Assembly (NCBI GenBank): GCA_039545335.1
Contig: BCIN01000004.1
Location: forward strand, 1 to 64,000
Source: Kondoa subrosea
Lineage: Eukaryota
Direction: 5' to 3'
Length of the DNA: 64,000 bases
The notes beneath the pieces were generated by a model. It had not been told where the DNA came from. It did no database searches and saw only the letters and a list, made by a program, of their open reading frames with translations. Both the position numbers and the translations under genes were made by a program. Positions 2,516 through 53,056 of the stretch are shown here, piece after piece. Position 1 is the stretch's first letter. The number at the start of each line of letters is the position of its first letter.

Positions 2516-2732
2516 AGTCTGAGAAATTTAGCAGCCCGATTTATCTTACTCTCACATATAGAATGTTAGCCAAGCTTGTTGCATACAGGCCCTTCAGCAG
2601 CATTTTCGTGTGTCGGGCAAATAGCAGAGTATCAAAGGGTTAGGTGACATTCCGATGACCGAGGACCTCTAGATGAATTTAGCCACCGATTTTAGCTGCC
2701 TGCTGATCGCATCGCCTGCTCATTCGGTATAG

Positions 2733-29750: not shown

Positions 29751-29990
29751 ATGCCTTCCGCTATTACTTGCACCGTCGACCCTAGAAANACTCCAGGTCC
29801 ACCAGGCGGTATTGGTACAGTCTGTGTCGTCTCTCGTAACACTCCAGGTCCACCAGGCGGTATTGGTACAGTCTGTGTCGTCTCTCGTAATACACCAGGG
29901 CCCCCAGGTGGCATTGGCACAGTTTGCGTCGTCTCTCGTAACACTCCAGGACCTCCGGGTGGCATTGGCACAGTCTGTGTGATTGCTTGA
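29751..29990 (+). CDS. Mating pheromone precursor with four tandem CAAX-type peptide units (RHA/rhodotorucine-like)
   Basis: MPSAITCTVDPR-[xTPGPPGGIGTVCVVSR]x3-NTPGPPGGIGTVCVIA*. Terminal CAAX (CVIA), internal CVVS-R, 51-bp repeat with synonymous differences in the peptide moiety, and STE3 in the same window. Confidence 0.9.
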   Translation: MPSAITCTVDPRXTPGPPGGIGTVCVVSRNTPGPPGGIGTVCVVSRNTPGPPGGIGTVCVVSRNTPGPPGGIGTVCVIA

Positions 29991-30272
29991 TTCGGCAAAA
30001 CCACGGTCAGCTCATCTGCAGTTGCAAATATTTCGAGGCTCACGCATGTCTGCTGCCGCAGCCAGTACAATAGGGTGATGGCGAACTACGGTGTTTCCGG
30101 TTTCGCACGGTTGTAATCGAGAATTTGTAGTAGTGCAATGTGTGAATGTAAATACTGATCTCGCGAGATCAATGTTTCCGCATCGAAGTATCATCCTTTG
30201 ACCCCCAGTCTTCGAAAATCTGTCCTTCCAAACTTCACGTTCCAAAGTTTACCTGATGCGCTCAGTCTATCC

Positions 30273-30980
30273 TCAAAACCACAGACTAACCGAAAAAGAT
30301 GGGTCGAGGCTTTGCATACCATGCCACCATAAAGGTGGCATGAGCAGCAGGTCCCCAGGCTGCAAGACCGTCTCTTGAGCTCCAGCCTCGCGCATACCGT
30401 AAGCTCTACGCTCGCGTCGTCGGAGAAGACGTCTATGTTCGAAGTATTACCGAAGACACTGGCATTTGGTGCATTCAATAAATCTCCCGATTCATTGTTT
30501 GCAGCTTTGTTGCGCATGTCCACTTCCGGCGGGGCTAGCCAGACCCGTTTGCGGCCAACTACTTGTGCTATTCCTTCAAAATGAGATCTCTACTGCCGGA
30601 CAGCGCATATCGGGAGAAATATACCGTAGGCATTATAGTACGGATCGGTATGCGCTGGACTAACGGTCCCTTTAGGCCCAAGCCATGCATTAACGGCAAC
30701 ACCTGTATTGGTCGCGGGCGAAACATAGACGGCGCTTTGAGGTCGAATGGTGAAGACGCAGTCCGGAATCAGCATATCCTTCATCAGCTGCGGAAATTGC
30801 AGAAAAAGATCGTGCTGGGCTAGGTATTGTACTTCTTGCTTGCTAGATGCAGAACCATTGCAAAGAGAAGATAAGGATTCGATGAAAGGCCTCATTTCTT
30901 GCGACCATCCGTCCTTTGTGTAATCGCGACCAATTTCGACCGGTACCATTCGATCTGGACCAGCTGCACGCGAGAGTAGG
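30273..30980 (-). pseudogene. JMJD5/KDM8-like JmjC oxygenase, 3' part only, cut off by the adjacent retroelement
   Basis: LLSRAAGPDRMVPVEIG, YLAQHDLF, NAWLGPKGTVSPAHTDPY and DLLLMPPLWWHGMQSL..SFSVSLWF*. The frame runs into retroelement sequence at about 30985. Confidence 0.7.
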
Positions 30981-30984
30981 CAAG

Positions 30985-32228
30985 ATACCTCCCCCTTCCA
31001 GGCTCCGGCCAGTGTGCAACACCTCCCCGGGCGTGCGAGTTGCCTAGTGGGGGAAACACATGCTTAGGGAGGGGGTTAAAGAGATTATATTCCTGTCTAC
31101 AACGACCTTTCTACTGACACATAACTGAACCCAAATACTTGATACTTGATCCCATACTTCCGATGCTTTTCTCCGATACTGATACTGATACTGAATCCAT
31201 GCTTTCCTGACTGTTCTCTGTCTACTCTTGAGATATCCATCACTTGTCTTCTTCTGCTCAGCGTTTGCTTCTTTTGACCTTCTTCATATGCCTTTCAATT
31301 GAGCCTCCCAATCTCGCAATGCCACCAAGACCTTCCGCCCAGCGTCTTCATCTTTCCCATTTGCTAGATTTCTATCTACCCATGTCTTTACTCTGAAATC
31401 CTTCAAATCCTCGGTGTACTGGTAAGAAGGGAACTTGATTTCTATTCTAGTGAAGTGAACCAAGCAAATAGCATGATACTGATGAAATTGACGACCACAG
31501 ACGCAGGTGAGCCGGTTACAGAACTTCATTCCACGCCATTTGAGAGCTCGGTCTCTGTCGAATCGATCTGGTATTCTGAAGACGAGATCGGACAGATCAG
31601 GTCCTCGAGATTCGGGGTGAACAGCTTTGCCCATATCGCGCGTCTTCGTCTCTAGATACTGCAGTCTTTTCATTTTAAGGAAGAATTTGAGCTTAGCTTT
31701 AATTTCTTCCACTCCATCTTCCGCACAATCTTCCTCGAATCGGTGGTACAGCTCGAACCCAATCAAGTTATTGATGAGAATAGATTCCGTTTGATTGGAC
31801 GTCATATCTAGGTACATCAAGGCAGGATTAGTAGAGTCCAACCGATTCAGATGAAAAGCGAGAGAGCAAGCCATATGCTCCAATCGCACGAATGGCGGAA
31901 TGAGGCCAGTCATGGATTCGGATAGAAGCCATCGCTTGTCGGACTGATGGGCGATCCAGGTCACTGCTTTTCGATGAAGTTCAATGTATCGATTCATCAC
32001 TTGCGATGATTTGCGTTTTGGTACTTCTTGTAGCCGATGATGCAGGAACCCGCTGCCATAATCGATGAGCGAGCCACAGAATGAACGATATATGGTGAGG
32101 CGAATTCGAGGCGACCATGTTCCTCCTTTCGCACAAAGAAATCGAAAAACTCTTTCCATCTTCGACAGGGGAACAGAAGCGGAGAACTCTGACCGGAAGC
32201 TGAGTGTCCATAATTGGAGCGTTTTCAC
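30985..32228 (-). mobile_element. 5'-truncated non-LTR (LINE-like) retrotransposon: post-RT region, Cys/His motif and 3' UTR
   Basis: Intronless 314-aa ORF (31284-32228) with LTIYRSF..SLIDYG, HRKAVTWI, TGLIPPFVR and CVCGRQFHQYHAIC. No YADD RT core is present. The UTR has low-complexity GATACT repeats at about 31135-31195. Confidence 0.75.
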
Positions 32229-33729
32229 TACTGAGAGCTAGATGCATGCTCAGCGGACGTATGATTTTGTCTATTGCTGGAAAGTGATTGCTTGATAGAG
32301 TCACCCGCAAGACATAGCCTTCGCCGCTAACAGCCGAATCGGTATGAATGCCTTGCTGTACTATAAGGAACCAAGCAGAACCTTGCGTCCGCGGAAAGAA
32401 AAGAGAAGTGGATGATGCGCTGGCAAGCAAGCAAATCAGATTGACTTTGTTGAGCGACCATTTGGGAGAGTATCGTGCGAGAGCAAATAGACTCGCGAAG
32501 TGCAGGCAAGTCCAAAGAGACGGGTCCTGGAGAGCAGCAAGATGTATAGCAGTGGAATTGACGGTGGCTGTTCAATCTTAACAAGATTCTTATTAGCCTG
32601 TGCGTCTGTGTTCACCTGTGTTGCTCAATTACCAGCATGGGAGTAGGGGTATAGCTGTCAAACTTCGTATACAACTTTTGCTGGACCTCAAGTCAAACAA
32701 ATCGACTCTTTGTTCCACTTTCGAGTTCCTATTCGTTTAGTCAATCGTGGCTGTGGAGCTTTGCGGGCGCGGAAAGCTATCATACCTCGTCCTTCTGAGC
32801 CCGAAAATTCACGCGCTACTAAGCAAATGCTGCCGCGGTTTCCAGTTTGCGTAACGCGATACCGCATTGGAAATGCCAAATCGTCCAGCATTCCGAGCTT
32901 CTGCTCTTTTGAGCGAAACAGCTGCTCAAGGCTGGGCGGCAGAGCTGTTCTCGTTCAAGACTCGGTATAAAAAAATACACAGCAAAGCCAGCATGTCGAA
33001 ATTGGCGCCGAAAGGCGGAACTCTCTCGGCTGCAGTAAGTTGTCCGAAACAAGGTCTTCAAGCCAAAAGGAACTTGAGCAGTATTCGATATTAATCAATC
33101 AGGAGTCTTGTAATGAGGAATAATTGGCCACATCTATAGCGTGGAAGGAAACGAGAAGTGAGCTGATTTGTATGGAGAAGCTTTGCAACAGAGTCATGAT
33201 GAGATAAAGCAGGGGAACGGACCTTGCTAAACGATTTACAATTAGCATAGGAATATTGGGAATCTACACGCTCAAGCAAAGTGGCACATGTTCAAATATA
33301 CGATTTCGACAAATCAGGCAACAAATTGCTCGAAGTAACGATAAGAAGGTTGCGAGAAGATGTTGGGCTCTGTCGCTTCACTTTTGCCAGATCTGTGTTC
33401 AACTGTATCAGATACATTTTCTCCGGGTTGTCACTCACGGTACATGTCGGTCGGTGTCTTTGAAGGGCTACTTCCCCTTGGCCGTAGAATGTACGATTGC
33501 TGGGCACTTGTAAAATATGTAGGCTCTGCCTTGGTATCTTGTTTCGTCCCTTTATTACCATGCCTGTGTTTCCGATGCGTACTATTCACTGGAAGGATGG
33601 TAGAGCTGACAATTTCTCTGCACCTATCAGATCTCTTTTGATGAATTACAGAACTTAACTTAAGGTTACCTTTGTAATTCACTTAAAAAATGTCACTTGA
33701 GGGGAAGCCTTTCTCTCCTACCATCCTGC

Positions 33730-34356
33730 ATGGCTCGCTTTGTGGAATACCAAATCATCGGGCGCAAGCTTCCGTCCGAGAACGATGAACAGCCAAAGCT
33801 CTATAGAATGCGGATTTTTGCACCAAACGAAGTGGTAGCCAAATCCAGATTCTGGTATTTCTTGCGCAAGCTACGTAAAGTGAAGAAGGCGGCTGGTGAA
33901 TTGGTTGCTATCAATGTGGTACGTATGCTGACTGCGAGGTTCGAGTGGCCTTGCTGACCCATTTGCGCTCAGATTTCTGAAAAGAAGCCATTGAAGGTCA
34001 AGAACTTCGGCGTTTGGCTCAGATACGACTCTCGTTCGGGCACGCACAACATGTACAAAGAATACAGAGAACTTTCGAGGGTAGAGGCTGTACATGCTTG
34101 CTATCAAGACATGGCAGCTAGACATCGTGCTCGGTTCCGTTCAATCCACGTTAGTTCCTCAACCAAATGTCGGCATAGGCTAATGTTTTGTTTTCAAATA
34201 CAGATCTTACGAGTGGCAGAAATCCAGAAAACTGCCGACGTCCGTCGCTCAAACATTAAGCAGCTGTTGACACCCGGACTACGTTTCCCTCTGCCACATC
34301 GCGTCATCAAGTCACGCTCAAAATTCTTGGCCAGTCGACCATCCACCTTCTATTAG
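33730..34356 (+). CDS. RPL20: 60S ribosomal protein eL20 (L18ae/L20)
   Basis: [42 protein letters not shown] and C-terminal RPSTFY*. Two introns. Confidence 0.96.
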
Positions 34357-34990
34357 TTGCGCAGATTGCTGCAAGTTGACATGAATGATTAGGAGATGAT
34401 AGACGCATGTAAGATTGCATAGACACTGCGTAGCGTTCCATCCAGCTCGATATCTTGTAGTAGAGCCATTGCGATCGGCGGTATTAAAGGACCTCGTTGA
34501 TCGCCTATCGTGCATCTCTTTCGTAAAGATTTACCTTTCTGTGTTTGCAGTTTCAGACACGTTCTCATTCTGTCCCATATCTCAGTCTCTTGCGTCTATA
34601 TTACACTTTTCTGACAAGGTTCCGAGTCCAATTGTGTGCGCAGCAACAGTTTTCTTTCTCTTGCCTCGCATCTTTATCAATTTTGTCAGCACCTGCCAGT
34701 GATGGTGTTGCAGGTACGCTGGAGAGTCTTTGCAAAGTCGTGCAATGATTAACTGGGCTTCAGAGCTACCACAAACGCCTAGCATCAAAAAAACATCAGG
34801 AGCGACAAAACTCGGTAGGGGTTTCCAAGGAAGCTCCCCATTGCGCAAGCGGTCAGGCTTCGAAGGCTGTAACGTCTCATCCTGCCAATTGTCATGAGAG
34901 CGAGAGCACCACTCGACACCCAAACCTGCCAGCGGATCAAGGTATTTAAGGGTATGCTTCGCTTCAGTACACGCTGCTAAATCTGCCTCC

Positions 34991-34994
<4 letters not shown>

Positions 34995-35050
<56 letters not shown>

Positions 35051-35070
35051 CGTGTGTGTCTGTGTGTATG
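34995..35070. repeat. Compound (TC)n(TG)n microsatellite
   Basis: About 21 TC units followed by an imperfect TG run. Confidence 0.95.
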
Positions 35071-35679
35071 TGGAAAAGAGGCTTTGTCGGATGCTAGTCC
35101 GGGAACGCTGGAAGAGGAAGATATTCAATTGGCTGGCTTCACTGAAAGGTGTAAACGCTTGTTCCAGGATGGCGCTCATTCGCAGCTGCACCCCATTTGT
35201 ACTGACGGCTACAGTCTCAAGCGGTCAAATGATCTATATATTTGCTGCGACGAGTATGAGCGAGATTCTTCCGCCGGACAAATAGGCAATGGTATGTCAG
35301 CATCTCTGCAGTCGCATGGTACGTGGCTTATGTCTTTTAGTCATACAAAATCAGCAAAAGCTACCGTCTGGTCTGAGCATTCCGCCGGTTGAATCGTTAA
35401 TTTTCCAACAACCTGAAAATGACAGTTCAGGCATTGCGGACCACGGTAGGTTGGCCCAAAGCACTGGCTCCTTTCGTCATCACTGAATGCCTCTGAACTC
35501 AGGGCAAGAACAGAGAGCAAAGTGTCCCGGTGAAGCATTTCTGGATGAGCTATTGTTGTAGAGTCTTCCGCAGATGACGCATTGTCTTAAAGCTCTTCAG
35601 AACATGTAGCTTTTGCCATTAGAAGATCTCTCTCTACATTGTAAGATCTCAATTCGAAGTACGCTTGGAGCGGTTCGCG

Positions 35680-36411
35680 ATGTTCGCCGATATACGAAGT
35701 TTTGGTCAGAACCAAACCTTGCCCTTTCCTGCTCGACCAGCGGAACCTCGCTCAATGGGATTGCCTCGAATCATAAAGCTCGCGTGGCAGACCAGCCATA
35801 CATCCCGTGCGCCAGTGTCATTCGAACATGTCAAGCAAGCATCTTACACGACACAGTCTAACTTGCTTCCGATCAAAGCCGGCCTGTCATACTCGCATGT
35901 GCGTTTGGTGGATCCAGTTACTGGTCGCTTGGACTCGCCACGGAGGCTAACGAATATACTCGCTGAGTTGGACTGCACGAAATCTTCACTGGTGGTCGTC
36001 AACCCGCTGCACGATCCACCTATCTGTAAAATCGTGGATAAGGCGGCAGAATTACAGAACGGGATACGCGCGAGGGCAAATTTTCAACGTAGTCAAAAAA
36101 ACAATGTTGTCAAAGAGATACATCTCACCTGGTCTGTCACGGCGCATGACCTTCGACACAAGCTTAAAGCTGCAGAAGACGTTATCGCGAAGGGTGGTAG
36201 GGTGAAAGTGCAATTCTCGGCGAAGCGGGACAGTAGTACAGAAAACACCTCACAACATCAGAAAGAGCAAATCATAGGTAGCGTTAAACAACACCTGAAA
36301 TCGCGGGCTCAAGAGTTGAAGGCGAAAAGCATCGAATGGAAGAAGGCAGAATGGAGGGAAGCCAAGGCGAACTTGTACATGCAATTCTCACCAATCACTG
36401 CGCCTGTTTAG
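35680..36411 (+). CDS. Mitochondrial translation initiation factor IF-3
   Basis: VRLVDP, PPICKIVDK and KEIHLTW.VTAHDLRHKLKAA..KGGRVKV, with a basic N-terminal extension. Confidence 0.8.
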   Translation: MFADIRSFGQNQTLPFPARPAEPRSMGLPRIIKLAWQTSHTSRAPVSFEHVKQASYTTQSNLLPIKAGLSYSHVRLVDPVTGRLDSPRRLTNILAELDCTKSSLVVVNPLHDPPICKIVDKAAELQNGIRARANFQRSQKNNVVKEIHLTWSVTAHDLRHKLKAAEDVIAKGGRVKVQFSAKRDSSTENTSQHQKEQIIGSVKQHLKSRAQELKAKSIEWKKAEWREAKANLYMQFSPITAPV

Positions 36412-36417
36412 ACTTAG

Positions 36418-37899
36418 CTAGACTGTCATGATATTCCCAGGGGCATTCTAGCGATCATCGTTATCAGCATTGACCGACGCCTTTGCCCGAATCAACGACT
36501 CTAGAATGCCAAGTAGATAATCCAGTCTCTAGGGTCTTGATTTGTGCGTTGTCCAAAACTCGGGGTTGCACCCATTCAACATAAACCATGTTGTCTGGCT
36601 GATCAATACAGCCACCTATGAGCTTCAATCTAAGCGCGAAGTACTCAATAGATATTAGAGCAGTGAATGTATGAAGAATGCTTACGATAAAGCCCTCATG
36701 ATTAGATGTTCAACTTCGACGGTGGGAAGTTGTGTTTCTTGAGCAATAGAAGTGAATGGGAGCTTGCGCACACCTGCTGCGCGCTTGAAGACAGCTTCAA
36801 TTAGAGCCATTAGGCAGATCTTTTCCCGTAGGAAAGCGATGTTGTCTTCAAGAAGAGGCTATCTCGGTGTCAACTCGGTTAGTAAAAGCAGATGTCGGTA
36901 GGCGAAGCTTACCTCGCGCGGCAAATCGGTAATCATGGCCTCAAATTTACCAATAGCACCAGCATTAAAAGCTAGCACCAATTTTCTGACCCAATCATGC
37001 TCAGAAGTCTTCAAGGCGTCAAGTATAGGATGTAAAAGCTTTGCCTAAATTCAGCCTCGCCCGGCGATCCAACATAAATGGCGCACCAGTTCTCCGAAAT
37101 TGTAAGTAGTACCACTTAGCAAAGCAGCCAGAGCTAGGTCGCGAGCACGCGAGGAACGTTGCTCAGGTTCGAGATCCACATTCAGATCAATGCATGCGAG
37201 AAACATGAGCGAATGCTTGTAGTAATTGCCATAATCCGCTTTCGCCTATGGCATTGCGAATATCCGTAATCAATAATTGTTTTTGTGAAATGTATGAACT
37301 TACCTTGTAGTAGTCGCCAGATACTCGATAGAACGAAGCATTCACCGATGCCTCAACTCGGTCTAGTTCAGCTAGAACGCTGGCACATTTCGTCATCGCG
37401 GCAAAGGTCTCCTCAACGCGGCCCGACAGGAGCCTTCGATGGGCAGCCTCCATGGTCACCACCACAAAAGCATCCTGTGACTGCGGTTTGTCGAGCCTTT
37501 CAACAATACTGTCGAGAAATCGAATGGCTTGATTTGGCTCTAGAAACAAACTTTCAGTGCGCTATGACGGCTGTAGGGCCAAATTTACCTGTATATTGCG
37601 TTGATACTGCAGTACCTATGTGCGCCAAGTCCAAGGGCGCCAGATTAGCGGCAAAGCCAGTGATGAATTCAGTGTAGAGGTCAATCAGAAGCGGCGCCGC
37701 GGAAGGATTTGAAGTGATAGAAAGTAGCTGTCTTGATAGCTGATGCCAGAGTCTACGGAAGGAACGGATGTGTAAGTGTTCCGTAAAACGAAGATAGCCA
37801 ACCGCTTGACCTTTTGTCGTGAAGAGGCTGCAATTGTGCCAGCGAATAGCTCAGCAGGGAGTCCGTAGTGCTCAGCTGTAGCGTTCTGATGTTCATCAT
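36418..37899 (-). CDS. RPN9: 26S proteasome lid subunit Rpn9 (PSMD13), spliced
   Basis: LWHQLS, NASFYRVSGDYYK, YNFGEL, EKICLMALIEAVF, VEHLIMRALS and WVQPRVLD. The last exon is approximate. Confidence 0.9.
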
Positions 37900-40800
37900 G
37901 GAACAGACAGTCTGTTTCTTCCGAACTAGCAGGAGTGACAGTTTGAAATCAAGCACGGTCTAATTATACCGGCTTCAGATTGTACGCAGGCAGCCGATAC
38001 AGCATGAGATTTGATAGACATTGCAACCTCGCTTCACATTATAGCATTTTAAATTGAGGCTTGCTCAATTACACATACTATACTGTAATGCGCTTCTTCT
38101 ACATTCGCGCCGCACTCACTCTCTTCCCGTTCGAGCACACGGCTTACAGTCTTCTCCACCCAGACCGTTGCGTGTCCAACAAAAGAGGTACAAATCAATC
38201 AAGAAATGACTATAGCATTGCTTCGCCAAATTGTTTATGAGCATGCAGTGAGAGACATCCAGCAAGCAGTAGCCAGGTCAGATGGCCAGAAGCAAGAGAG
38301 CTACATTGCTTCAGGGCCGTACCCATCGGCTAACGCAAATTCAGCTGCCAATTAGGGGAGCAAGAAGACCTCAAAACCATCCATCGTCGCGCACTGACAC
38401 ACATTTACCTGAATGGCAGCTATTCAAAATAAGAGGAGGTGCGTGCAAGTACACATAAACCACAGTTCTGTAATAGTCGGAGGATTTGATCCGTAGACCT
38501 GTGCTCGCAATCCATGCATCGGACAATGCCACACATGTGCCCAAAAGGTGAAGATGAGCCTCCGCCTCCTGCTGGTAGCCGTAAGATGACGGTCGATCGG
38601 CGAGTAAGACTAATTCAGCTCTTCATATATTATCGCACAGATGCACGATTTGACTGAAGTCGGGAAGAGGTGTTCAGCAAGGTGCTATGCTGCCAAAGTA
38701 ATCGGCAGGCGTGTTCACGGATGATGCCCTTGAAGCGTTTATGGGAAGCCAGTGCAAACCACGCAAGTCGTCCAAAGAAGTGCATTACTCGAATAGAAAG
38801 TCCCAGCTCATACACAGATCACACATCGTCGGTCCTTGCCGAATACTTACGCGCTGCTACATCAAACCATTTTGAAAACAGCAAGCGCCAATCCCAATGC
38901 ATCTTAATGGCGCGCATAAATCTTGATATAGCGCATTGGGAACAGGTGGCTACGGATATCTTGACGGATTTATTTGTCATCACAGCCTCGAGTCCTCAAT
39001 TCCGCCAATTGGGTCATACGCAGATTCAACATTGCAAATACAGATATTGCCTTGAGCAGATGACAGCGCTATGTAGATGTGCGAGAGCAGACTTTGCGTC
39101 CATCAACGAAGAAGATTCGCTCGAGCTGCACATGACTATAGCAAACATTTCGATTAGATCAGTCGATGACCATTAAGGCTTGCTGAGCCTTGCTTGACAT
39201 GATGACATTTTCGGGATATTGACAGTGTCTGCTTCACTTGTCCGATCATTTGATACCCAGGGAGCTTTAACAGGGGCAACGAACAGAGTACTCTGACGCA
39301 TCCATCTTGACCAAAAATGCGAAGAAGAAGGAAGGACTGCTAGCTTCGCCAATCTCTATGGCATGACAATCTTGAGTGGATGAGCTGATTGCAAGTGCAT
39401 TAGTTTTGCGTGGTCTATCGGCTGCATTCTAAGAAAGCGCAGCTCTTATAATGAGCTTCATGCTGCGAGCGCTTGCACTACGGAAGCTTCTATTAACGGG
39501 ATGGACGTTCGCAAATATTTGACTGACTTCTTTAGGCCCTGTACGGCGATCCCTGCGCAGCCTCATCTTCTTAAAGAAGCAGGATGACATTCTTGCTTTG
39601 AGGTAAATAACTCAATAGCCCGCTTACGTGCTCTTTCTCCGCCAAAACTTGCTTGCGCAGCAGTTCTGTAAGGTTGTTGTTCTGGAAAGTTCCAGCATGT
39701 GAAGTCACTGCGGCAGTCCCGCGTCGGCGTGAGCCAGAAGCATGACTATAATGACTGGTTAGGCGAACCTTTGGCCAACCCGCAAAGCGGTCTTTAGGCA
39801 AGGCATAGTATCGACAGACTGGCAAGGACAGTGAGTAGCTACCGTTTATTGCAAGCTTGAAGAGAGGAACTCGAGGCGGCAGAAGGATTCCTCAAATCTT
39901 CAGAGCAGCACACAGACTAAGAGACCTTAATAGAGACCTGTATGAACAGATCGCTAGACCCGCGGCCGGCTAAAGCGTAATAGTGATCGCCAGCAGGAGC
40001 GGAACTGGCCCGCGCTCCTGGCAGATAAGCGCAGAGCCAAATGGACTGAAATTTGAAAGAGGAGTTATCTGGAAAGGAGGAAACAGAAGCGACCAATGCA
40101 GTCACGCAGAATGTGGATGCGAGCAGCTGATCGTTGTCTAAAGTTAACGACGCGAGTACGAAGCACAGTAGCCAAGCTTACTTAATCAGCATAGCCGGTA
40201 TTACCGAACTTCGAAATTACTTTCATCTCATCTCATGAAGACACAACGGTAGCTGCGGACTGGAGAGCAAGCTATATCGATAGCCCAGAATCATAGCTCT
40301 GATACGCAACCGCTCGCAAGCTCTGAAGCCACCTGGCAGGGGTCAAACACGGCTCGAAATTTGGAGCTGTCGAGTGCTCGTTAGTATATTTAGAAGAACT
40401 CTTCCACTACAAAGATTGGTTGTGGTGGCGATGCGACGATGCCACGATGCCACGATTTATCCTTGTCAGCTGCAGCGTGAGATCTGTCCTTTTGAGGGTG
40501 AACAGCTACAGTACTATCTGGCATGGCCTCGCAAACTTAGGTGTAGCTGTAGTTAGATCGGAGATCAGCGAGCTGCATGGGAAGACTTGGCGTGGCACAA
40601 AGGAGAATCTCGCTAGTCATTCAACTTGTGATCTGAAAGACCAGTTGCGTAATCCCAATACTATCTCCACTAGTCTATCGCTTTGATATGGATTATGTAG
40701 TGATGAACATTCATTCTCCAAATGTAGACAGTACATAATTTACTAGATATTGGAATTGCTCCATAAGAACAGCATGCAGACCAAATTTGCAACAGATTAT

Positions 40801-41078
40801 AATATCCAGACCGCACAATAAGTGGCAGTTTGTAACTGCTTAGTTTTCATGTCTGACTCGGACCCGCTGCTGTACACATGCGCCCTTACTCGAAAGGAAC
40901 ATCGCGCCAGTGCGATTTGCGTGGTGCTTTAGCCCTGGCTTGAGTCTTTACCACTACTACATCTCTTCTCCCCCTTGCCCATTACAAAGTTTCTTAATCT
41001 TAATCAAGAGTCTACGTTGCACTGGCGGAGGATACTGATTCCGCAAGCAATCCCGATGTCTGCATCGCTTGGTTGGAT

Positions 41079-42147
<1,069 letters not shown>

Positions 42148-42457
42148 GCTTCTCCGTTTCTCGAGACTCAGGTCGATCCAAGCTCGTTGCAAAAGAAGCC
42201 CGAAATTGCATTGGTAACAAAATCGGGGCAAGTAGACGCAGGCTTTTTCAGGCTACCCCTCCTGCAAAACGAGTTTTATGAATGCGTAAAATTAATTCGA
42301 TGCAGACCTCATCAGGACGGCTCGTCTAGAGTACTTTAAACCCTGCTCTTGCGTACTGCTTGCCATTTGCCCGACTAAGCTCGCTGTCATTGCCCTTTAG
42401 GCCTCTTCGCGTGTTCCTTAGAGTGCTTTGTTGCAACTGTAGCGCTAGCTGAGCCCG

Positions 42458-45400
42458 TTACTGAGTAGCCTTCCGAATCATCTATTGCCAATGTCAGCAA
42501 CGATTCGCATGGGGTTGAGCCAGCCCGAACTTCTTTAGCCCATTTGGCAAGAGCTTTGCTTTCTGAATCACTTGGTCTCGTTCTGGCAGCCTTGAGAGCT
42601 TCATTCACCCAATCGTTTTGTAAAAGTGGTTTCACTTGCCCCTGAGGGAAAGCATCGGCCAGGTCGCCTAGTAGTCCGATCGAAGAACGAAGAATGCTCT
42701 CTGTACGTTCTGAGGCGGACAACACAAGCTGCAGAAAGGTGAAGATGGCGCCGACGTGAGGGAGCAGCAATGTACCTGCAAACAACTATTGGTGGGAGTA
42801 TGTCGAGGGCCGATGACTTACTTTGTGAGCTACTTTTCAAGCCAGCAACTATACCGATGTATGCCTCCAGAATACTTTCACGAAGACAGATGATGTAGTC
42901 CACCATGTCGTAATCCAGCTGTAAGTAAGTCTCATGAATTTGCAGGGCAGTATAGAAAGAGCAAACTCACAGGATCTGCACGCATAGAGCCAGCCTGTTG
43001 CAATACGCTCAAAGTCGTGGCCAAAAAAGGTTCGAATGAACCACCAATGGCAAGTGCAATATCACCGAAACAGCTGAGAATGGGAGGCTTCACGTTTCGA
43101 TGCAGTATGTTGCTCTGAAGATTGGCAAGCAGAACTTCCATGAAACCTTGGCAGTAAGGCAGACTGCCATCGCCAAGCCCTCGACAAATATCGCCAATCA
43201 GACCTACAGCAATTGAGCATAGCTGATAGTCTTGATGTGATTGAAGTGCATCTATCAGTGAAGGTAGAAAGGCTGGTAGGTAGATAGAAAAGCTCGTTTC
43301 CAGAGCTTCGGAACCGTCAATTCCAAATATATACAGCACAATTACACATACTGGAGATGGCGGCACCAACGCATAGAAATGCGTCTTCCAGTACGGGTGA
43401 TTGCTTAGGTGCAGTCTGAATAATTTGAAGCAACAGAGTCATAATTCTGTCAGCAAAAGGAGAGATGGCCTCCTTCCTAAAGCGTCGGATGATGCTCTAG
43501 CATTCCGACTGAGCTAACGGAAGATGCAAGAAGAGATCAAATTTACCGTCAAAGCGTTGCAGATGTTCATTTGGATCTCGTTGTAATTGTTGCGGTCATC
43601 TGAACCGACGATTTGTGTCTGCATGCCAAGCATATGCTCTGATCGATGTAGAAGTGCTGTCGTTAGCCCGTTGATCGTGACCGAGCAGTCGTTTGGAGCA
43701 TGTGCGATCAGAGCAGCGAGAGCCTCGTACCCGGATGTACGGGAATTTGATTCGTTGGTGCTTCTAGCATTTCGTCTTAGCTTCTATCTGCCAAAAATTT
43801 GCGCCCACGCACGCTTCGGTCATACGCAATAAAGCAGATGTAATCCCGTCGAAAAAGGGACTGAGCAGACCAGTCTCGGCTGAAGAGTCCCCTAGTTGCT
43901 CTCCCAAATTCATCAAGCCCCAGCAGCAGTTACTGATTACTCGAGGGCTCTCCCCCAGGCCTCGCACTAGCGCTGTGACCAAGCTTGCCAGATGAAGTTC
44001 TGTATTTACAGTCGAGATGAGGACATCACATATTCTGCCTAGTGTCCAGGCAGTAGTGTCCTTGACATGAGCATTCGGGTCTTGCATCATTTCGATAATG
44101 GTCGGTAGAGCTTGCGAAACAAGAGGCAACAATAGCTTTTCTTCTGGGCCATCTAAAATTGAGCCGAATGCCATGATAGCCGCCTCACGATGATGCCAAT
44201 CAGTGCTCTTGATGTGATCTTCGACAAAGGGGATGATAGGTGTTACAATACTATCACCGACCGCTTGCGCCAGGAGCGCAAGACAAGTTCCAGCTGCCAT
44301 GCTAAGGTTCCATTCATCTTCTGCGGCGTCTTCTTCTTGGCGGGTCAATTGCAATAAGATTACTGGCAAAATTTCGGGCAAAGCAACACGCGCAAAATGA
44401 TGAGATTCGCGGTCGGAAACTTCATCATAGGCAGCGGCTTCTTCTGATTGCAAGGCCAGCTCTATCTCTTCATCACATACTGTGGACCAGAATTCGACAG
44501 CTTGAAGTGCGACTCGTTCCTCTTCGTGTTTCATGCCCATGATGGTCAACTGCGCTCTCATGTGAAGCCGGACTTGATAAAAGATCAATGATCTCCACTA
44601 ACCCCGAATAAAGCTTTCTCCATGTAGAATTGCATCTTGTCGTAAAAGAGTTGCATTATCTTGACCAAGCACTCAAATGCGGCAACTTGTACGTCCGGTG
44701 ACTGTGATTGAGTCGCTTCGCAGACAACTTGCATAATGTAATTGCGCTCGCCCTGTGCAACATACGTATACACGCATCGCTCAGCCTCTGAGCAAGAATA
44801 AAATAATACGTTGCTCACCTCCCTCTCGAAATTGTCACGTATAAATTCAAGCGAGTTCACCAAAGCGACGATAGCCGCCAATCGGACCTCCACATTTGGC
44901 TCTTCCTGTCGGGCGCCTTGAATGACAGCAGTCAGAATCTGGTTCGATTGGGCCAACAAGATTTCTGGACGCTACATGGTCGAGCATGAGGGAAATCCGT
45001 CCAAAAGCCAAAAGTACTGACAATTTGCTCGCAAATATACCCAATCGCTTGTAAACTCGCTTGCCGTAGCCCTGCGTTGTCTGCTCGGGCACCAAACGAT
45101 AGAAGCTGATCCACAAGGTCTGGCCAAAGACCAGCGGGCAGTTCAATGCATGCAATAGCAGCAATGACTTGACCAGCAACATTTCTCGCTCCCCTGTCAC
45201 TACTAGCAAGAGTGCTGAGGGCACCGCTCTTGACGTCTTCGCGGGTAGCAATTTCAAGGCTCAGCCAACGCTGAGCATGAAGGTCTTTCGTAAGATTTTC
45301 GCGAGCTGAGAGGGTGTTCTTGATAGCCAGACCTGCGGCATTCCTGAGATGAGGCTGCGCGCCGTCGTCGCGCGCAAGAGTTTGAGTTAGAGCTCGAACA

Positions 45401-45513
45401 TAGTCGCCATACGCAGATGAAGCCAGCTGTTCAAGCTGCGCCGTGGCTGTCTGTCGAAGACTCGCGTCTGGGGATAGAGACGCAGATAAGAGGTCTGCTA
45501 CAGTCTGCGACAT
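42458..45513 (-). CDS. KAP95: Importin subunit beta-1
   Basis: IBN_N motif LRNAAGLAIKN, ERNYIMQVVCEATQ, LQAVEFWSTVCDEE, AAIMAFGSILDGP and KPPILSCFGDIALA. Confidence 0.95.
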
Positions 45514-45667
45514 CGGCAAGTCGTTCAAGGCTTTATGGTGGAAATGGATGAAGCTCGAGCTTTTGAAATTTGGCCGAAGGCAAAGCAAAGTCGACCAACT
45601 CGCAATTGTAGCGAAGCCTCTCGCGACTTGCAGCCGGCCTTAGCCAAGCACTCGTGTCAGTCAATAA

Positions 45668-46272
45668 ATGGCCCGTAGAACGTCTGCAGTGAGCAGCAGG
45701 CAAGTCTCGTTTAATCAAGCTCACGCCATGCCTCAATAGGTTAGAGGCGGCCCGCGTGATGTTGCAGCCTCTCGAGGAGGCCGTACAGCCATTCAAGGAG
45801 GTCGTGACGTTCGAGCTCCGATTCTGGACCTGTCAATCTACCTCGACAAACAAGGTGCGCGCCTCATTTGTACCTCACACTCTGGCTTGCTCATTGAGCG
45901 CAGTCAGAGTCAAGTTTTCTGGAGGACGAGAAGGTACTGTCTTGGGTGGTTTGGCAGGCATTTAATGAGACCTCCCCCTTAGTCACAGGAACCCTCAAAG
46001 GATACGACGCCCTCTTGAACCTGGTGCTTGACGACGTAGAAGAAGATACGATAGGTAGGCTTTTGGCATTGCTTGTAAAGCGGTAGCTGATATGCGTTCC
46101 CTGTAGGGGAAGCTCTTACAGAAACCCGTTCGCTAGGTCTAGTAATTTTAAGAGGTACGGCTGTGGTGGTGATTAGCCCAATGAATGGGTACGTCGGCTC
46201 GCGCCGTAGCGCGCAAGACGTGCTGATGTTTGTTAAAGCATGGAGGAAATTCCAAATCCTTTTGCCCAATAA
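45668..46272 (+). CDS. LSM7: U6 snRNA-associated Sm-like protein Lsm7 (five short exons; not captured in the ORF track)
   Basis: Spliced by eye to ILDLSIYLDKQVRVKFSGGREVTGTLKGYDALLNLVLDDVEE..TRSLGLVILRGTAVVVISP..MEEIPNPFAQ*. Confidence 0.9.
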
Positions 46273-46335
46273 CGCCTAAGCATGAAACAACAGTACAACG
46301 AGATGTATTCGAGAAACATCCGGACGAGCTTGCAT

Positions 46336-47843
46336 CTATAATTTAGACTGAACGAAAGAGATGCCCTGGGAACAATAGATGAGCATTACTAATCGAAAAT
46401 GTTATCACGTAGACAACTTTTACCTTGGAGATGTTGCCTTGTAATTCAGGAATAGCGGCTGCCAACAGCTCTTTCTCATAAGGAGAGCTACAATATATAC
46501 GATCAGCGCATTAAGCCTAACAAAGTGAGGTACCTCACATGTCACCGATCGAAATCAATCGCTCTATACCAGATGGCTATGCACGTCATGAGTATGAGAC
46601 TACAGTCATCGTGAAAACAAAACATACACCTAATTCCACTGGAACGCTAAAGTAATCGCTTTCGGCCCCGATTGCCGATCGAATCTTTGCGGCGTCTTCT
46701 GGCATGGCCTGCAAGAGCACATCTGATTCAATAGCAGCAATAAGCGTCATGTACGAGATCGCAGGACAGATGTAATTTAGACCCACAGCTCATCTCAACA
46801 ATCCCTGTCTTTCCACCCCATTTGGCCGACAACAGACTTGAAACAAAGCGGTAGCCAGCTGCAGCCATGGACAATGTAGCAGAGCCGGCGCCTACGCTGA
46901 CATGAATTGACCGCATTTTTGTACAAGCCAAACAAATGACTGACCGTCTTTAGCTTTGACCACTTCGTCGCCACCAAACTGAATACGGTTGGTAATTTGA
47001 CGCAGTTGTTCTTCATTCAATCCCTCCAGAGATGGCCGAGCTTGCGACAATAGAGGCAAGATGGTGACGCCGCTGTGGCCGCCAATGACGGGTACCTGGA
47101 AGTCCGGAGCTGCTCGAGGGTTGCCCATTGCTTCAGCGCAGAAAGTCTCGGCTCGCACAACATCCAATGTGGTGACGCCAAAGAGTCTGCGGGCAAATTG
47201 TATCAGAAATAGGAGCGCGTCTTGCAATACAATCGTACCTCTTTGGATCGAAGACCCCGGCTTGCTTGAGAACTTCTGCCACAATCGGTACAGTAGAATT
47301 GACTGGGTTGGATATAACGCAAATGAAAGCTTTCGGGCAGAATTGACCGATAGCGACTGCTAGATCTCGCACTATGCCGGCGTTGATCTACATCATCATA
47401 CACGATATAAATACGATGGACTGAACATATGGAAGTCAGCCGCACCTTGAACAAATCATCCCTGGTCATGCCAGGCTTTTGTGAATTGCATCAGTACTTG
47501 AAGCGGCGAATATCACATGAGATACCTTGCGAGGGACACCAGCAGGGATTACTACTACATCTGAGCCGGTCAGAGCTTTTTCTAGGCCGCCATCGTCCTT
47601 AGTATGGCCGGTGACGATACTGGGCGTCGAGATGTGACTGATATCAACGGCAACACCCTTTACAACTGGCACAATATCGAAGAGTGCTAATTCAGTGATA
47701 ACGGTAGATTGCTTGAGTAGCAGAGCCAAAGGCTGGCCAATTCCTAAGAAATCGACATGAACCAATAAAACGCCGTTTCAAAATAAGACAACAGTACCAC
47801 CAGCGGCGCCGAGCAGAGCAACTTTGCATGAAGATTGTGACAT
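46336..47843 (-). CDS. NAD-dependent malate dehydrogenase, no mitochondrial presequence, C-terminal PTS1 (SKL)
   Basis: [42 protein letters not shown] and [14 protein letters not shown]. The last exon encodes GISFVQSKL*. Confidence 0.92.
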
Positions 47844-48013
47844 CTGGTGTGATATTGATCTAGATGGTAGTCGCTCGGAAAGGTTGTGCAAGGTTGGATT
47901 TCGAAGTCTATGTATCTCCGCCTGGACCCGCGTGCCTGGGCGGGGCAAAGACCAGTCGAGCAATCATTGAATCATCCCAGGTGTATTACTGGTGAGACAG
48001 TATTATGCGATCC

Positions 48014-49092
48014 TTATCTATACAGTAACAGCCGGAAGGGGAGTTGCCAATCGCGCTGATGCAGTCGAGGCGCGAACAGATTGTACTTCTCTTTGCTCAA
48101 GCGAGCCAACCATCTCTTTTCAGTCAGCTGACGTGACGATTGAGAAAGTGACAGGGGAGAGAGGTAAGTTGCACAAACCGTTATCATGCGTAGCGGCCGC
48201 AGCGAGCTCGATTCCGCAAGTATGGCTCTTGCCTCTATGAAATCAGCAGTCGCCATGTTTGCGACTTGCACTACCAGAGCGCGCAGCCCTTCATCCGTGT
48301 CATTATCCATTTTGTAAAGCTGCCGTTCCGACAAGCCTAGGCCATGTATCAGATCTAAAGGCAGGCCCAAACGTCGCCGTGATAGCTCTTGAGGTGTATT
48401 GCGTAAAGCGTAGACCAATGACTGACCACGGGCAAGGTGCATCAAACTACTCTTCAACTTCTTGGTGTCTTGCATTAGCAGTTTTGCTTGCGCTGACAGA
48501 AGTTGCATGTTGGAATCTTTTGACTGCGCGTCGAACTCCACTAGTGTTGCTACCGTGGTCCTCCCGCTAGCAAAATTTTGGGACTAAGGAGTTCCGGTCA
48601 GTGGCCACGACTGAATGGATTTGGTGATCCGAACTTTCATATCCAAGAATCTTTCGAGATGATGTCGGCTGTGTACGAACAGATGCAAGTTGCGCCTGAT
48701 AGCCAGAGCCGTGGGATGTTGAGGTACAGCTTGGCTCTATCGCGCTGTCATCAGCCTTGTCAAAAGCAATTCATTGTCCACCTTCAACCAACCTCGAAGC
48801 ACTCTGCTAGGGCATTCCTCCACCACTCGAAGCGCAACATACCCAGGTGCCGATTTGTGACAGAAAGAGGAATGCGCTGCAACTCCAGTTGGAAGCTACG
48901 AAGCGCCAGATAGGCGTCCCTTGTGACAGCGGGATAGAAGAAAGATAACAGGAAAGCATCATAATCATTGAGCTTGACAAGGTTTGCGTTTTCTACCGAG
49001 ACTTTCGCCGCTGAGGTCTGAATACAGCTTTGCTGCTGAACCCGTTGTAGCCGTAGTTGTCGAAGCTGCCGTCCAGAAGATCTAGCGAACAT
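48014..49092 (-). CDS. NDUFAF6-like complex I assembly factor (squalene/phytoene synthase fold)
   Basis: LVKLNDYDAFL, AYLALRSFQLEL and GMLRFEWWR, with an Arg-rich presequence-like N-terminus. Confidence 0.8.
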
Positions 49093-49200
49093 CGCGGCAG
49101 GCTACAGAGACTTTCGGAAAGAGAGTCTACAAATCTACAAATGTCAAATGTTGTCTAAAACTTCCACAACTTTTCACACCAGTATCTATAAGGAAGAATA

Positions 49201-49740
49201 ATGCGTCTTTCAACAGTCGTGGCATCCCTGACTACTAAGGCCTCACTATCTTCCGTCGCAAAAGGTACTCTATTTGAAAATGAATGTATAGCAATACTGC
49301 TCAAGCTTTATGGCAATCGAATGCGTTTGAAGCGGGTCGGAGGTAGAGGCGACAAAGGTGTCGACTTTCAAGGGTGGTGCTGCTTTTCGGAACAACAGCT
49401 GTCGTGTCGTTCAGGGAATTCGGTTACCTCACAACCAGCCAGCTTTCGGATAGTCGGTCAATGCAAGGCTTTCAAATCAGCAATGGGTCCTGCACACGTA
49501 CGAGAGTTTGATGCAGTTTGTGTCCGTGCTCAAGCTACAAGTCATCACTCCGTCATCGGCATTTTGTGTGCGAAAAACGGATTATCGACAGCAGCTCATG
49601 CTACCTTGCAGAACTCTTCCGCTCCTATACTCCTATATACTCCTTCTTCAGCAGCTACCCCAAAATTATTTCCAAACAAGGTTGCTCTGACACACACTTG
49701 GGTGAGCATTTGTGGCGGGACAGAACCGGTTGCAATCTAA
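49201..49740 (+). CDS. RRG7: RRG7/DUF2034 family mitochondrial restriction-endonuclease-like protein
   Basis: GTLFE, RVGGRGDKGVD, GQCKA and GPAHVREF (Mrr-like D..QxK motif). Confidence 0.75.
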   Translation: MRLSTVVASLTTKASLSSVAKGTLFENECIAILLKLYGNRMRLKRVGGRGDKGVDFQGWCCFSEQQLSCRSGNSVTSQPASFRIVGQCKAFKSAMGPAHVREFDAVCVRAQATSHHSVIGILCAKNGLSTAAHATLQNSSAPILLYTPSSAATPKLFPNKVALTHTWVSICGGTEPVAI

Positions 49741-50631
49741 TCCACCAGGGATAGATACATTGATCCTTCAAAGGGGACACAGCCAAACTACTCCTGTACT
49801 TTGCTGCCCGATAATGCTTTCAATAAAGACCCAGATCATTGAACATGCACCCGGCGTTGCCAACTTCCGATCGCACGAGCCACCGACTGCAAGCTCCACC
49901 ACAACAAGCTTGTCACTAACCGCGCGCCTGAATAATCATCAGTGACGTGAGCAGAACAATAGTAATAATATAAATGGCCCAGCTTACACATCAATATCAC
50001 GCCCTTTGCGAGGAGCCAACATGCTAAACGTCGGCGTGGATCGTTGAAGTCGATGTGCTTTGATTCGTAGCCTTCCGAAACATCCATCACGCAAACTGTA
50101 CCATTCTGCCGATTGAGTATATCAGCAGCGGATGTGAATCGAAACCTGACCATCAGAACATTCGCTTCCGTCTTCGTTCGGACTTCCTTGAGTATTTCCG
50201 ATCATATCTGGGTCTTCTGCTTCCATTTTGGTATCGCGTTCGCCTTCAGACAAGTCAGCATTGACTAGTGCTCAGAGGCACCCGAGGAAGCCGTACGAGC
50301 CGCTTTCGCAGAAGAACGAGTGCCATAAACAGCAACAGTGGCTATCATTGCAGCAGTAAGGGGCCAGCCCAGAAATTGCATAGCAGTCCAGCCTCGAATG
50401 GGAGTGATACGGTATGAGATGCAACGGCCGAGGCATCTTGAGACTGCCTGTCTCTCATGGGCAGCAACATTCGAGGCTACAAAGCCTACGTTTGCTGCAT
50501 GGTGATACCGTAGATGAGCTGTCGAGAGACCTATGTTTATAATGTATGACCTGAACATTGTTTGAAGTATGTGGCTGGGGCCAACAATTGACGAGGTGGT
50601 AGCTAAACCATAACACATGGACCTTTCGAGA

Positions 50632-50659
50632 GTCTTTTGTTCGAAGGTCTTTTTGTTCT
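50632..50659 (-). promoter_or_regulatory. Tandem pheromone-response-element-like HMG sites upstream of STE3
   Basis: GTCTTTTGTTC (50632-50642) and GTCTTTTTGTTCT (50647-50659; reverse complement AGAACAAAAAGAC), 50-80 bp before the ATG. Confidence 0.55.
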
Positions 50660-50709
50660 CACCAAAAATATCATCTCAGAGTATTTCCCCTTTCGTTCCT
50701 TTTATCACA

Positions 50710-52121
50710 ATGGACTTCCCTTACGTAGTGTTTAGTGGTCTTTGCGTCTTGCTCAATTTGATTCCTTTCGCCTGGCAAATCGAGCACCGCAATGGCGGTA
50801 CTATTTGCCTGGTATTTTGGGTATTGATAATCAATCTGTCCAACATGGTAGGAAGATCTCTGTTACTGCCGATCCGGACTGATCAATTAGTACGCAGGTG
50901 AACAGTATCATTTGGAGAAATGATGCTATAGACCGTGTCCCTGTTCTCTGCGATATAGCAGCGAAGGTAGTGTTGCTTGTGCTATTGTTGTCTGGCGCGT
51001 CTCAGACTCGATTCTTTAGATCAACCTCGCTGGACCATTTGGTATCTTATGTTCGACGATATGCATTGTGCATTTCTTGGCCAGAGTAATGACGCCGTCC
51101 GCCGGCATGTTGACAAGAAATGATAAACGTCGTCGCGCCGTTTTGGATTATTCGTTATCTTTGGGCTTTCCGTTGTTGATAATGGCATCGCACATTATAT
51201 ATCAACCCACTCGGTATGGTATCTCACAGACAACTGGCTGTACCTACACTCTGGTCAAAACGTGGCCTACCTATATACTTCTGTGGGTATGGCCTCCGGT
51301 ATTGGCGTTCATTGGCGGGTCTCTGGGTGGTACGATTCGTGTTACACGCTGATGAGCGAAGTATTCTGATACCTACTATTAGTCTACGTAGTGTACCGTC
51401 TGTTGCAACATCGCCGGGATTTCGGAAAGCTCGTCGCCAACTCAAACTCAGCTCTGACTGCTTCACGTTTCATTCGTCTGGGTCTACTTTCTTTGAGCTG
51501 GTTGGGCATCAATGTACCGTTCTCGATTTACAATTTCATACACATTCAACGGAACGGTGTTTATGAAGATTATGATTGGCAGTATGTTCACAGCTATGTA
51601 AGCACGTCAGGTGCATGAATCTACCCACTTGTTTCATAATAGATCGTGAAATAGTTTCAAGCACCTTTACAGCGACCGCTCTATCCGAAAACAACATTCT
51701 ACGACTGGCAATCCATTATAGCAGGCATCCTCGTCATTATTTTCTTTGGCTTCAGTCAAGAAACATTTGCCTACTATGGGCGCGTCGGACGAAAGGTCGG
51801 ATTGGCTCCGCTACTTGCCTTTCGCAAGCGCGCGAGACTTGAGGCCTCCAGCGAACGGGGCGTCGACTCCCCTTACATTGGTCTGCAGTCAATCAGGTGA
51901 ATGTCTCTTGTTTATTGATGTTCGTCGGAATTTACACAGCTCTCAGACTCGACAAGACCTTCGGAACGTCGTCTTCAGAGCAGGATCTCACCAAGACCTT
52001 ACACATGCACCGAGTTGAAAGTCAAAAAAGAAATCATTCGAACGGTCTACCAGGCGGTGCTAAATTCAACTCGACAGCGGTGCTCAAAGTAAACGTTGTA
52101 CGGGAGGAGCAAATAGTTTGA
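50710..52121 (+). CDS. STE3: STE3-type lipopeptide pheromone receptor (7-TM GPCR), spliced
   Basis: LIPFAWQIEHRNGGT..VNSIIW..PVLCDI, KRRRAVLD..GFPLLIMASHIIYQPTRY..GC, WPPVL, SALTASRFIRL and IFFGFSQE. Confidence 0.95.
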
Positions 52122-52159
52122 GGCGGGCTGCAGGGCTTCGTTGTAGATATACAAGGGAT

Positions 52160-52840: not shown

Positions 52841-53056
52841 CGGCGCCAATGTCTGCATTGTGGAACGTGGTCTCAGCTTGCTACTTGAACGACAGGCAGA
52901 CTAACCTACATGCAGCGACTGGTTGATGCGTGAAGCGCAACTGCAGAGCGGAAAAACTTCTTGACTCGTCAGGGAGCAATTGTTTTGGACTGAACACCTC
53001 AATATAGGATGACCTTCAGTCTTTGGCAGAATATCATGTGATTTAGTCATTGTTTC

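Follow-up and report, generated by a model that had tools for sequence, protein, structure and literature searches.

A pheromone/receptor gene pair in a partly conserved red-yeast-like neighbourhood in Kondoa subrosea

Within a 64,000-nucleotide stretch of Kondoa subrosea DNA (assembly GCA_039545335.1, contig BCIN01000004.1, positions 1 to 64,000; hereafter the window), a gene for a tandem-repeat lipopeptide pheromone precursor and a gene for an STE3-type pheromone receptor, both intact, lie on the same strand. The stop codon of the former and the start codon of the latter are 20,719 bp apart and enclose 12-13 housekeeping genes, among them RPL20 (RibL18ae) and a divergent KAP95-LSM7 pair. This is a genuine pheromone/receptor (P/R) gene pair in a partly conserved ancient neighbourhood, found in an unsampled lineage of Pucciniomycotina; P/R loci as such are already known. 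We consider it probable that this is where the P/R mating type is encoded in a yeast-like member of Pucciniomycotina, haploid or homozygous, that lies outside the sampled groups. The elements named in an earlier note on this DNA (the pheromone gene, RPL20, divergent KAP95-LSM7, STE3 and a gap of about 20.7 kb) are all present where that note had placed them, or close by. In Pucciniomycotina, P/R loci have so far been mapped mainly in Microbotryomycetes and rusts. Our search of a literature collection returned no paper joining a pheromone receptor with Cystobasidiomycetes and Agaricostilbomycetes, and none joining KAP95 with Mixia.

The pheromone precursor and the receptor

The pheromone gene occupies a single exon of 79 codons plus stop on the plus strand, with its ATG at 29751 and its stop ending at 29990. 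The product begins with a leader of 12 residues and continues with four tandem units, each composed of an arginine, the 13-residue peptide NTPGPPGGIGTVC ending in cysteine, and an AAX tail. The tail reads VVS in three units and VIA in the one at the C-terminus, so that Cys-Val-Val-Ser occurs three times internally and Cys-Val-Ile-Ala closes the precursor. Tandem Repeats Finder describes the array (29790-29980) as 3.7 copies of a 51-nt period with 88% matches. Pairs of units differ at 2-10 nt, and the sole amino-acid change among them is the VVS to VIA replacement in the last CAAX tail. Because the differences inside the arginine and peptide are all synonymous, the units represent a selected gene and not a chance repeat, and the peptide repeats are clearly under purifying selection. 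The only N in the window, at 29789, leaves ambiguous the residue with which the first peptide copy begins, directly behind its arginine. The 51-nt repeat may have produced this ambiguity during assembly.

The precursor shares its layout, several identical peptide copies each with a CAAX-like motif, with the tandem a1/A1 precursors such as Microbotryum a1 and red-yeast RHA.A1. This layout has been described for Microbotryum a1 and for the A1 alleles of red yeasts; the same holds for a repeat-bearing precursor, MFA1, in rusts. The precursor of Aimea cardamina, RHA1, contains four peptide copies, the same number as found here. The 13-residue peptide itself had no match in the searches run and is set beside these named pheromones by layout alone. 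Whereas Microbotryum, Aimea and the red yeasts have multiple pheromone loci, the window has one: a six-frame search of the window for CAAX-ending small open reading frames (ORFs) and for parts of the peptide gave no second pheromone-like gene, in keeping with the single pheromone type reported in the earlier note.

If processing follows the route proposed for such precursors in red yeasts, for Microbotryum a1 and for rust MFA1, the precursor would be prenylated on the cysteine of its C-terminal CAAX motif and then trimmed. Cuts at the arginine spacers would release four copies of one 13-residue lipopeptide per molecule, which, once exported, would be detected by a compatible partner through its own STE3. 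The resident STE3, a G-protein-coupled receptor, would in turn sense a different pheromone produced by that partner, each haplotype keeping its own pheromone together with a non-matching receptor.

The receptor gene lies on the plus strand at 50710-52121. Its six exons (50710-50847, 50898-50966, 51020-51329, 51383-51597, 51655-51896 and 51947-52121) run from an ATG at 50710 to a stop at 52121, are separated by five GT-AG introns of 50-57 nt and encode an intact protein of 383 aa. The weakest part of the model is the last splice acceptor and hence the C-terminal tail. The protein is an STE3-type seven-helix receptor, as is apparent from Pfam, from collinearity with a known receptor and from its clade placement. 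Four exon ORFs within 50614-51897 hit the Pfam family STE3 (best E 5e-29), and the model is collinear with STE3 of Mixia osmundae, which among named receptors is the closest, at 45% identity over 302 aa (E 1e-101). Identity is 42% to the receptor of Atractiella and 41% to that of Rhodosporidiobolus lusitaniae. A word-based search with exon 3, the largest exon, gave 58 candidates, none of which scored. Exhaustive HMMER comparison of an STE3 exon with 1.84 billion cluster representatives returned 429 proteins at E<=1e-3 (68 at E<=1e-10), with no full-length match above 51% identity. The best named matches came from Mixia, Atractiella, Rhodosporidiobolus, Meredithblackwellia and rusts, followed by ascomycete a-factor receptors. 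Relatives of the Rhodosporidiobolus match bear source names such as "Pheromone receptor mating-type A2", and for this reason we take its clade to be STE3.A2.

To place the receptor, we built a tree of 31 rows with four ascomycete receptors as the root. The basidiomycete receptors fall into two clades, each supported at 100/99. The first contains the Agaricomycotina receptors together with the second receptor of Sporobolomyces johnsonii, presumed to be STE3.A1 and the one such sequence sampled. The second comprises 20 Pucciniomycotina rows, including the K. subrosea STE3. Within this clade K. subrosea is sister to the Logan sequence P0007 (97/88), and Mixia joins next (95/89). The receptor thus lies outside the clade of the presumed A1 receptor of S. 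johnsonii, and also outside the eight-row A2 clade of Microbotryomycetes (100/98). A broader, quick tree (78 rows) agreed with this placement. P0007 is a 307-aa STE3 fragment on a Logan contig of 1037 nt, environmental or unassigned in origin, with 48% identity to the K. subrosea protein; since it is the closest relative of that protein, at least one further member of this receptor lineage is present in public data.

The tree bears on whether the gene is a mating receptor at all. It could be a non-mating paralogue comparable to STE3.2-1 of rusts, its linkage to the pheromone gene being incidental. Rusts do carry such a gene, the chromosome-1 gene STE3.2-1, which is described as a non-allelic paralogue, and we infer that the chromosome-1A receptor of Puccinia triticina is its representative in our tree. 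Grouping with non-mating receptors was the outcome that the earlier note had named as telling against its proposal. The K. subrosea receptor, however, stands outside the clade of the chromosome-1A receptor (100/100) and groups with Mixia instead. It also resides in the conserved KAP95-LSM7 neighbourhood, like the mating receptors of seven Microbotryomycetes genomes (see below), with a pheromone gene 20.7 kb away. We regard a non-mating paralogue as very improbable.

The fit between pheromone and receptor raises a different alternative, namely that the receptor responds to the pheromone encoded in its own haplotype (primary homothallism), or that the region is an asexual relic with one fixed haplotype. 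A precursor with the tandem layout that accompanies A1 among Microbotryomycetes does stand here beside a receptor of the ancient clade that holds STE3.A2, and red-yeast haplotypes of mosaic make-up, in which an A2 receptor is combined with a pheromone gene of the A1 type, are reported. However, the rust literature assigns all three rust receptors to one of the two ancient STE3 clades, the same one that contains the K. subrosea receptor, and one of the three is linked to a repeat-bearing pheromone. Membership in this clade therefore says nothing about which ligand fits. The more specific proposal of a mosaic self-compatible haplotype, built from an A2-side receptor and an A1-style pheromone, was dropped on the same grounds. 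That both genes are intact, with the repeats under purifying selection, counters a decaying relic, though not homothallism. Overall, we consider a self-compatible or relic state unlikely.

Placement of the host and age of the gene neighbourhood

The host was placed using KAP95, as proposed in the earlier note. A 277-aa exon of this gene is 70-74% identical to its counterparts in Microbotryomycetes, 64-65% to those of rusts and 63% to that of Mixia. On 246 clean columns of the exon, nine Microbotryomycetes share 77-91% identity among themselves (median 83%), and against these same nine K. subrosea scores 70-74% and Mixia 64-67%. In the whole-length KAP95 tree the K. subrosea row, a tblastn projection of 803 residues on a long branch, falls inside Pucciniomycotina (Shimodaira-Hasegawa-like approximate likelihood ratio test 99) and outside a 16-row Microbotryomycetes clade (100); the tree does not resolve its branching relative to Mixia and rusts. 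The exon-only tree makes it sister to Microbotryomycetes with weak support (83). Although Mixia supplies the closest named receptor, its KAP95 is only 61-66% identical to that of K. subrosea, so the host is not a close relative of Mixia. No protein from the genome to which the window belongs turned up in either protein collection. Judged by KAP95, the host is a member of Pucciniomycotina outside all 16 sampled Microbotryomycetes, the rusts and Mixia, belonging to a sister class or a very early branch. Since it lies outside every one of these, a lineage whose mating system is undescribed, as envisaged in the earlier note, is plausible.

We compared the gene content of the region with the P/R core of Rhodotorula, which in a recent preprint (10.1101/2025.09.11.675505) comprises STE3, RHA, STE20, STE12-like, KAP95, LSM7, RIBL6, RPAC1, DDOST, RPS19, RRM and RIBL18AE, flanked by MITCARR1 and by APO, the latter at the left flank of the compact locus. 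Five of these 12 core items are present in K. subrosea (STE3, the pheromone gene, KAP95, LSM7 and RIBL18AE). The other seven (STE20, STE12-like, RIBL6, RPAC1, DDOST, RPS19 and RRM) were not found by Pfam among 489 stop-to-stop ORFs of the window. Of these ORFs, 140 + 141 had at least 75 aa and came from all of the window; the other 100 + 108, for the most part 45-74 aa long, came from selected unannotated zones. No protein-kinase or homeodomain match was obtained in this set, although a homeodomain spread over short exons could escape it; the earlier note had likewise reported no STE20, STE12 or homeodomain gene, and for the ORFs scanned in the 64-kb window this holds.

The three conserved housekeeping genes are well defined. 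RPL20, which encodes the L18Ae/L20 protein, is an intact gene on the plus strand (33730-34356; exons 33730-33918, 33973-34149 and 34204-34356; 172 aa; Pfam Ribosomal_L18A E 1.6e-15). KAP95, encoding importin beta-1, is on the minus strand at 42387-45513, with its ATG at 45513 and an approximate 3' end; it was identified by Pfam and by tblastn, which covered residues 6-851 of an 857-aa homologue. LSM7, on the plus strand at 45668-46272, is likewise intact, with six exons, GT-AG introns of 49-52 nt and a product of 117 aa (Pfam LSM E 5e-6); the five best of six PDB matches to its LSM exon are LSm7 chains. KAP95 and LSM7 are divergent, with 154 bp separating their start codons.

In descriptions of the red yeasts Rhodotorula, Sporobolomyces and Rhodosporidiobolus, STE3, a CAAX pheromone gene, KAP95, LSM7 and RibL18ae share one neighbourhood, KAP95 and LSM7 form a module as they do in K. 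subrosea, and the A1 precursors carry tandem peptide copies. The linkage of KAP95, LSm7 and RibL18ae to the P/R locus, which the earlier note had called established in Sporidiobolales and Leucosporidium, stands for Sporidiobolales/Rhodotorula; for Leucosporidium it is taken from Maia 2015 as cited by the Rhodotorula preprint (10.1101/2025.09.11.675505). The resemblance is nonetheless partial. According to Coelho 2011, the genes next to STE3.A1 are RibL18ae and RibL6/RNAPOL, and those next to STE3.A2 are LSm7 and RibL6/RNAPOL. In K. subrosea, STE3 adjoins neither LSM7 nor RPL20: malate dehydrogenase, an SQS_PSY-family gene, RRG7 and perhaps one more gene separate it from LSM7, ASF1 lies on its other side, LSM7 is 4-5 genes away and RPL20 16 kb away. 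The interval also contains genes that differ from the red-yeast core (JmjC-like, mIF3, RPN9, TRM8, malate dehydrogenase, SQS_PSY and RRG7), and the receptor is outside the STE3.A2 clade and the host outside the sampled Microbotryomycetes. The red-yeast-like synteny claimed by the earlier note is therefore upheld for five of the 12 core items; it fails for the other seven and for the immediate flanks of STE3.

A chance origin of the shared neighbours is very unlikely, because two independent units, RPL20 and the KAP95-LSM7 pair, occur in the same 21-kb interval of about 19 Mb of contigs; the rough odds of finding both in a given 21 kb are about one in a million. We also examined the spacing of KAP95 and STE3 in other genomes, using locus tags and accessions. 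STE3 is two gene models from KAP95 in seven Microbotryomycetes genomes (R. lusitaniae, R. azoricus, R. nylandii, R. poonsookiae, R. odoratus, R. graminis and Meredithblackwellia) and 18 gene models from it in Microbotryum intermedium. In the STE3 region of Mixia (proteins GAA95900 / GAA95894) the offset is six gene models on one 843-kb scaffold in both annotations, and in K. subrosea, counting from KAP95, STE3 comes fifth or sixth, a likeness in gene count. In Austropuccinia and Phakopsora, KAP95 and STE3 are on different contigs. Because the offset is six models in Mixia also, these data suggest that the KAP95-STE3 linkage predates Microbotryomycetes. RPL20 and KAP95-LSM7 would then be old neighbours of STE3 without a mating role, kept from before the split from Microbotryomycetes. 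With KAP95-LSM7 and RPL20 common to red yeasts and the KAP95-STE3 spacing common to Mixia, a gene-dense, clean P/R region outside Microbotryomycetes and rusts helps to date the neighbourhood.

Extent of the mating-type-specific region

Only one haplotype is represented in the data: two sequencing runs from one sample, with contigs totalling about 19 million letters, carry the region at full identity. Laying these contigs on positions 32500-52400, a span that excludes the pheromone gene, gave no second haplotype at 80% likeness or more. One pheromone type and one receptor are compatible with heterothallism. A single pheromone gene, a single receptor and the lack of a second haplotype in one sample would also fit the self-compatible or relic fungus considered above.

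Several observations count against the interpretation as a P/R mating-type region, or against its resemblance to known ones. Allelic dimorphism, the defining property of a mating-type locus, is a prediction here, the sample being a single haplotype. Red yeasts are described as having several pheromone genes, often in inverted repeats, whereas K. subrosea has one, and no pair of inverted repeats of at least 40 nt was found in the whole window. The interval bears none of the marks that usually accompany a long history of suppressed recombination. It has no transposon-like repeats, which again sets it apart from red-yeast loci; its tandem arrays are limited to the pheromone repeat and one TC/TG run, its GC content is even (0.465-0.504) and its genes are densely packed. 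Neither STE20 nor STE12-like, both members of the red-yeast core, was found in the window; they may lie outside it. The KAP95 row used to place the host is a long-branch tblastn projection, which makes the exact position uncertain. Finally, ACAAAGG, a motif of the high-mobility-group type resembling the pheromone response element, has a single site ahead of the pheromone gene, 162 bp from its ATG, and STE3 has none upstream. The window contains 15 such sites against 7.95 expected, a count reached in 1 of 100 shuffles, and we judged this motif uninformative.

The distance between pheromone and receptor has a precedent in the STE3.2-3/mfa1 pair of cereal rusts, where a repeat-bearing CAAX precursor likewise lies at a distance from its linked receptor. 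In rusts mfa1 is separated from STE3.2-3 by 10 kb to 0.54 Mb, with 10-13 kb reported for P. striiformis and 30-96 kb for P. graminis, so that the spacing of 20.7 kb is not without parallel. In contrast to the rust P/R loci, which are described as transposon-rich, gene-poor and degenerate, the interval in K. subrosea is gene-dense and clean.

Because each haplotype must keep a non-matching pair, one would expect the pheromone gene, STE3 and the 12-13 genes between them to be passed on together, or almost so; a two-allele system in which pheromone and receptor 20.7 kb apart did not co-segregate would fail. On the other hand, the region may consist of two small mating-type islands, in which only the pheromone and receptor genes are allele-specific and the 12-13 genes between them are collinear, near-identical and recombining, the neighbours reflecting plain conserved synteny. 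The interval is indeed dense, repeat-free, even in GC and without pseudogenes among the modelled genes (RPL20, LSM7 and STE3 are intact), and the rust range shows that distance alone defines no block. Crossovers within the 20.7 kb, however, would generate mismatched or self-matching pairs, which selection should remove, and work on red yeasts does report mating-type-specific divergence or rearrangement for LSm7, KAP95 and RibL18ae, including mating-type-specific sequence of LSm7 near STE3. We consider the two islands a serious possibility, somewhat short of an even chance, and hold the interval to be a non-recombining, mating-type-specific block, the expanded multigene P/R locus of the earlier note, only with reservation, as a reading that is possible but rather doubtful.

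Returning to the region as a P/R mating-type region, a broader proposal would combine two elements: a P/R linkage with KAP95-LSM7 and RPL20 that is Pucciniomycotina-wide in age, arising before Microbotryomycetes, Mixia and the host split, and a 21-kb block of a dozen essential housekeeping genes, with pheromone and receptor at its two ends, inherited as one undegenerated mating-type haplotype. We put this forward tentatively, as something less than probable. If true, K. subrosea would show a mating-type supergene either early in its history, when it is still clean, or in a state that has long been stable, and would do so in a class lacking any description of its mating system. Given a second mating type, which would be required, the region would make a case for studying the onset or the long stability of recombination suppression without the decay that confounds such studies in rusts and anther smuts.

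Remaining gene content of the window

The fungal DNA of the window is rich in introns, and its GC content stays even, at 0.43-0.50 in 2-kb bins. Its coding sequence is split into many short stop-to-stop frames, 194 of which, of at least 60 aa, lie between 28 and 54 kb. To the left, the pheromone gene is flanked by a SET2-like histone methyltransferase gene with SET, WW and SRI domains (26209-29119, minus strand). To its right, a Cupin_8 / JmjC-like gene lies on the minus strand (approximate extent 30194-32611; PF13621, E 2.8e-8 on the ORF at 30593-31063), followed by RPL20 and then, on the plus strand, by a gene for a mitochondrial translation initiation factor 3-like protein with its main exon at 35623-36408 (mIF3, IF3_C and IF3_N). 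Between RPL20 and this gene, at 34995-35072, a (TC)21.5 run is directly followed by (TG)18, and the public sequencing contigs break at 34985-35076, exactly at this run.

Next come a gene for a proteasome lid subunit of the RPN9/PSMD13 type on the minus strand (36685-37850; PSD13_N on three exon ORFs and PCI on one) and one or more unnamed genes at 38658-40683, with ORFs on both strands (38658-39173 plus, 39574-40177 minus and 40284-40683 plus); no Pfam family matched the long ORFs of this segment. A TRM8-like tRNA (m7G) methyltransferase gene (41082-41946, minus strand; Methyltransf_4 on three exon ORFs) precedes KAP95 and LSM7. Beyond LSM7 are the genes for malate dehydrogenase (46731-47777, minus strand; Ldh_1_N and Ldh_1_C), for an SQS_PSY-family protein with the squalene/phytoene-synthase fold (48017-49101, minus strand; Pfam) and for an RRG7-like protein (required for respiratory growth 7 / Mrr_cat; 49192-49737, plus strand; Pfam). 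A 42-nt piece of the malate dehydrogenase gene (46943-46984) matches another contig of the same runs with 8 differences, probably a second, paralogous malate dehydrogenase gene of this genome. Two ORFs of 121 and 136 aa on the minus strand at 49839-50675, without a family match, are possibly one further gene between RRG7 and STE3; the Protein Atlas gave no usable match to the ORF at 50268-50675.

Directly downstream of STE3, on the right flank, are the minus-strand genes for the histone chaperone ASF1 (52163-52900; Pfam) and, two genes past STE3, for an ApoO/MICOS-like protein (53060-53398; Pfam). The latter is possibly, by name only, the counterpart of the Rhodotorula flank gene APO, in which case it would add one more neighbour common to red yeasts and K. 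subrosea.

The left part of the window contains NCA2 (2700-4300, minus strand), the PI4-kinase gene STT4 (5000-11300, plus strand), SEC15 (12200-14500, plus strand) and ORC2 (15751-16947, plus strand). These are ordinary housekeeping genes, and we know of none that is P/R-linked. A tRNA scan of the window found none. Two direct repeats about 1.9 kb apart, at 383-666 and 2323-2525, share segments of 120 nt at 83% and 81 nt at 90% identity and may represent a duplicated promoter beside NCA2. The copy at 383-666 is dense in ACGCGT and CGCGTCAC-like motifs, which resemble cell-cycle (MluI-box) promoter elements.

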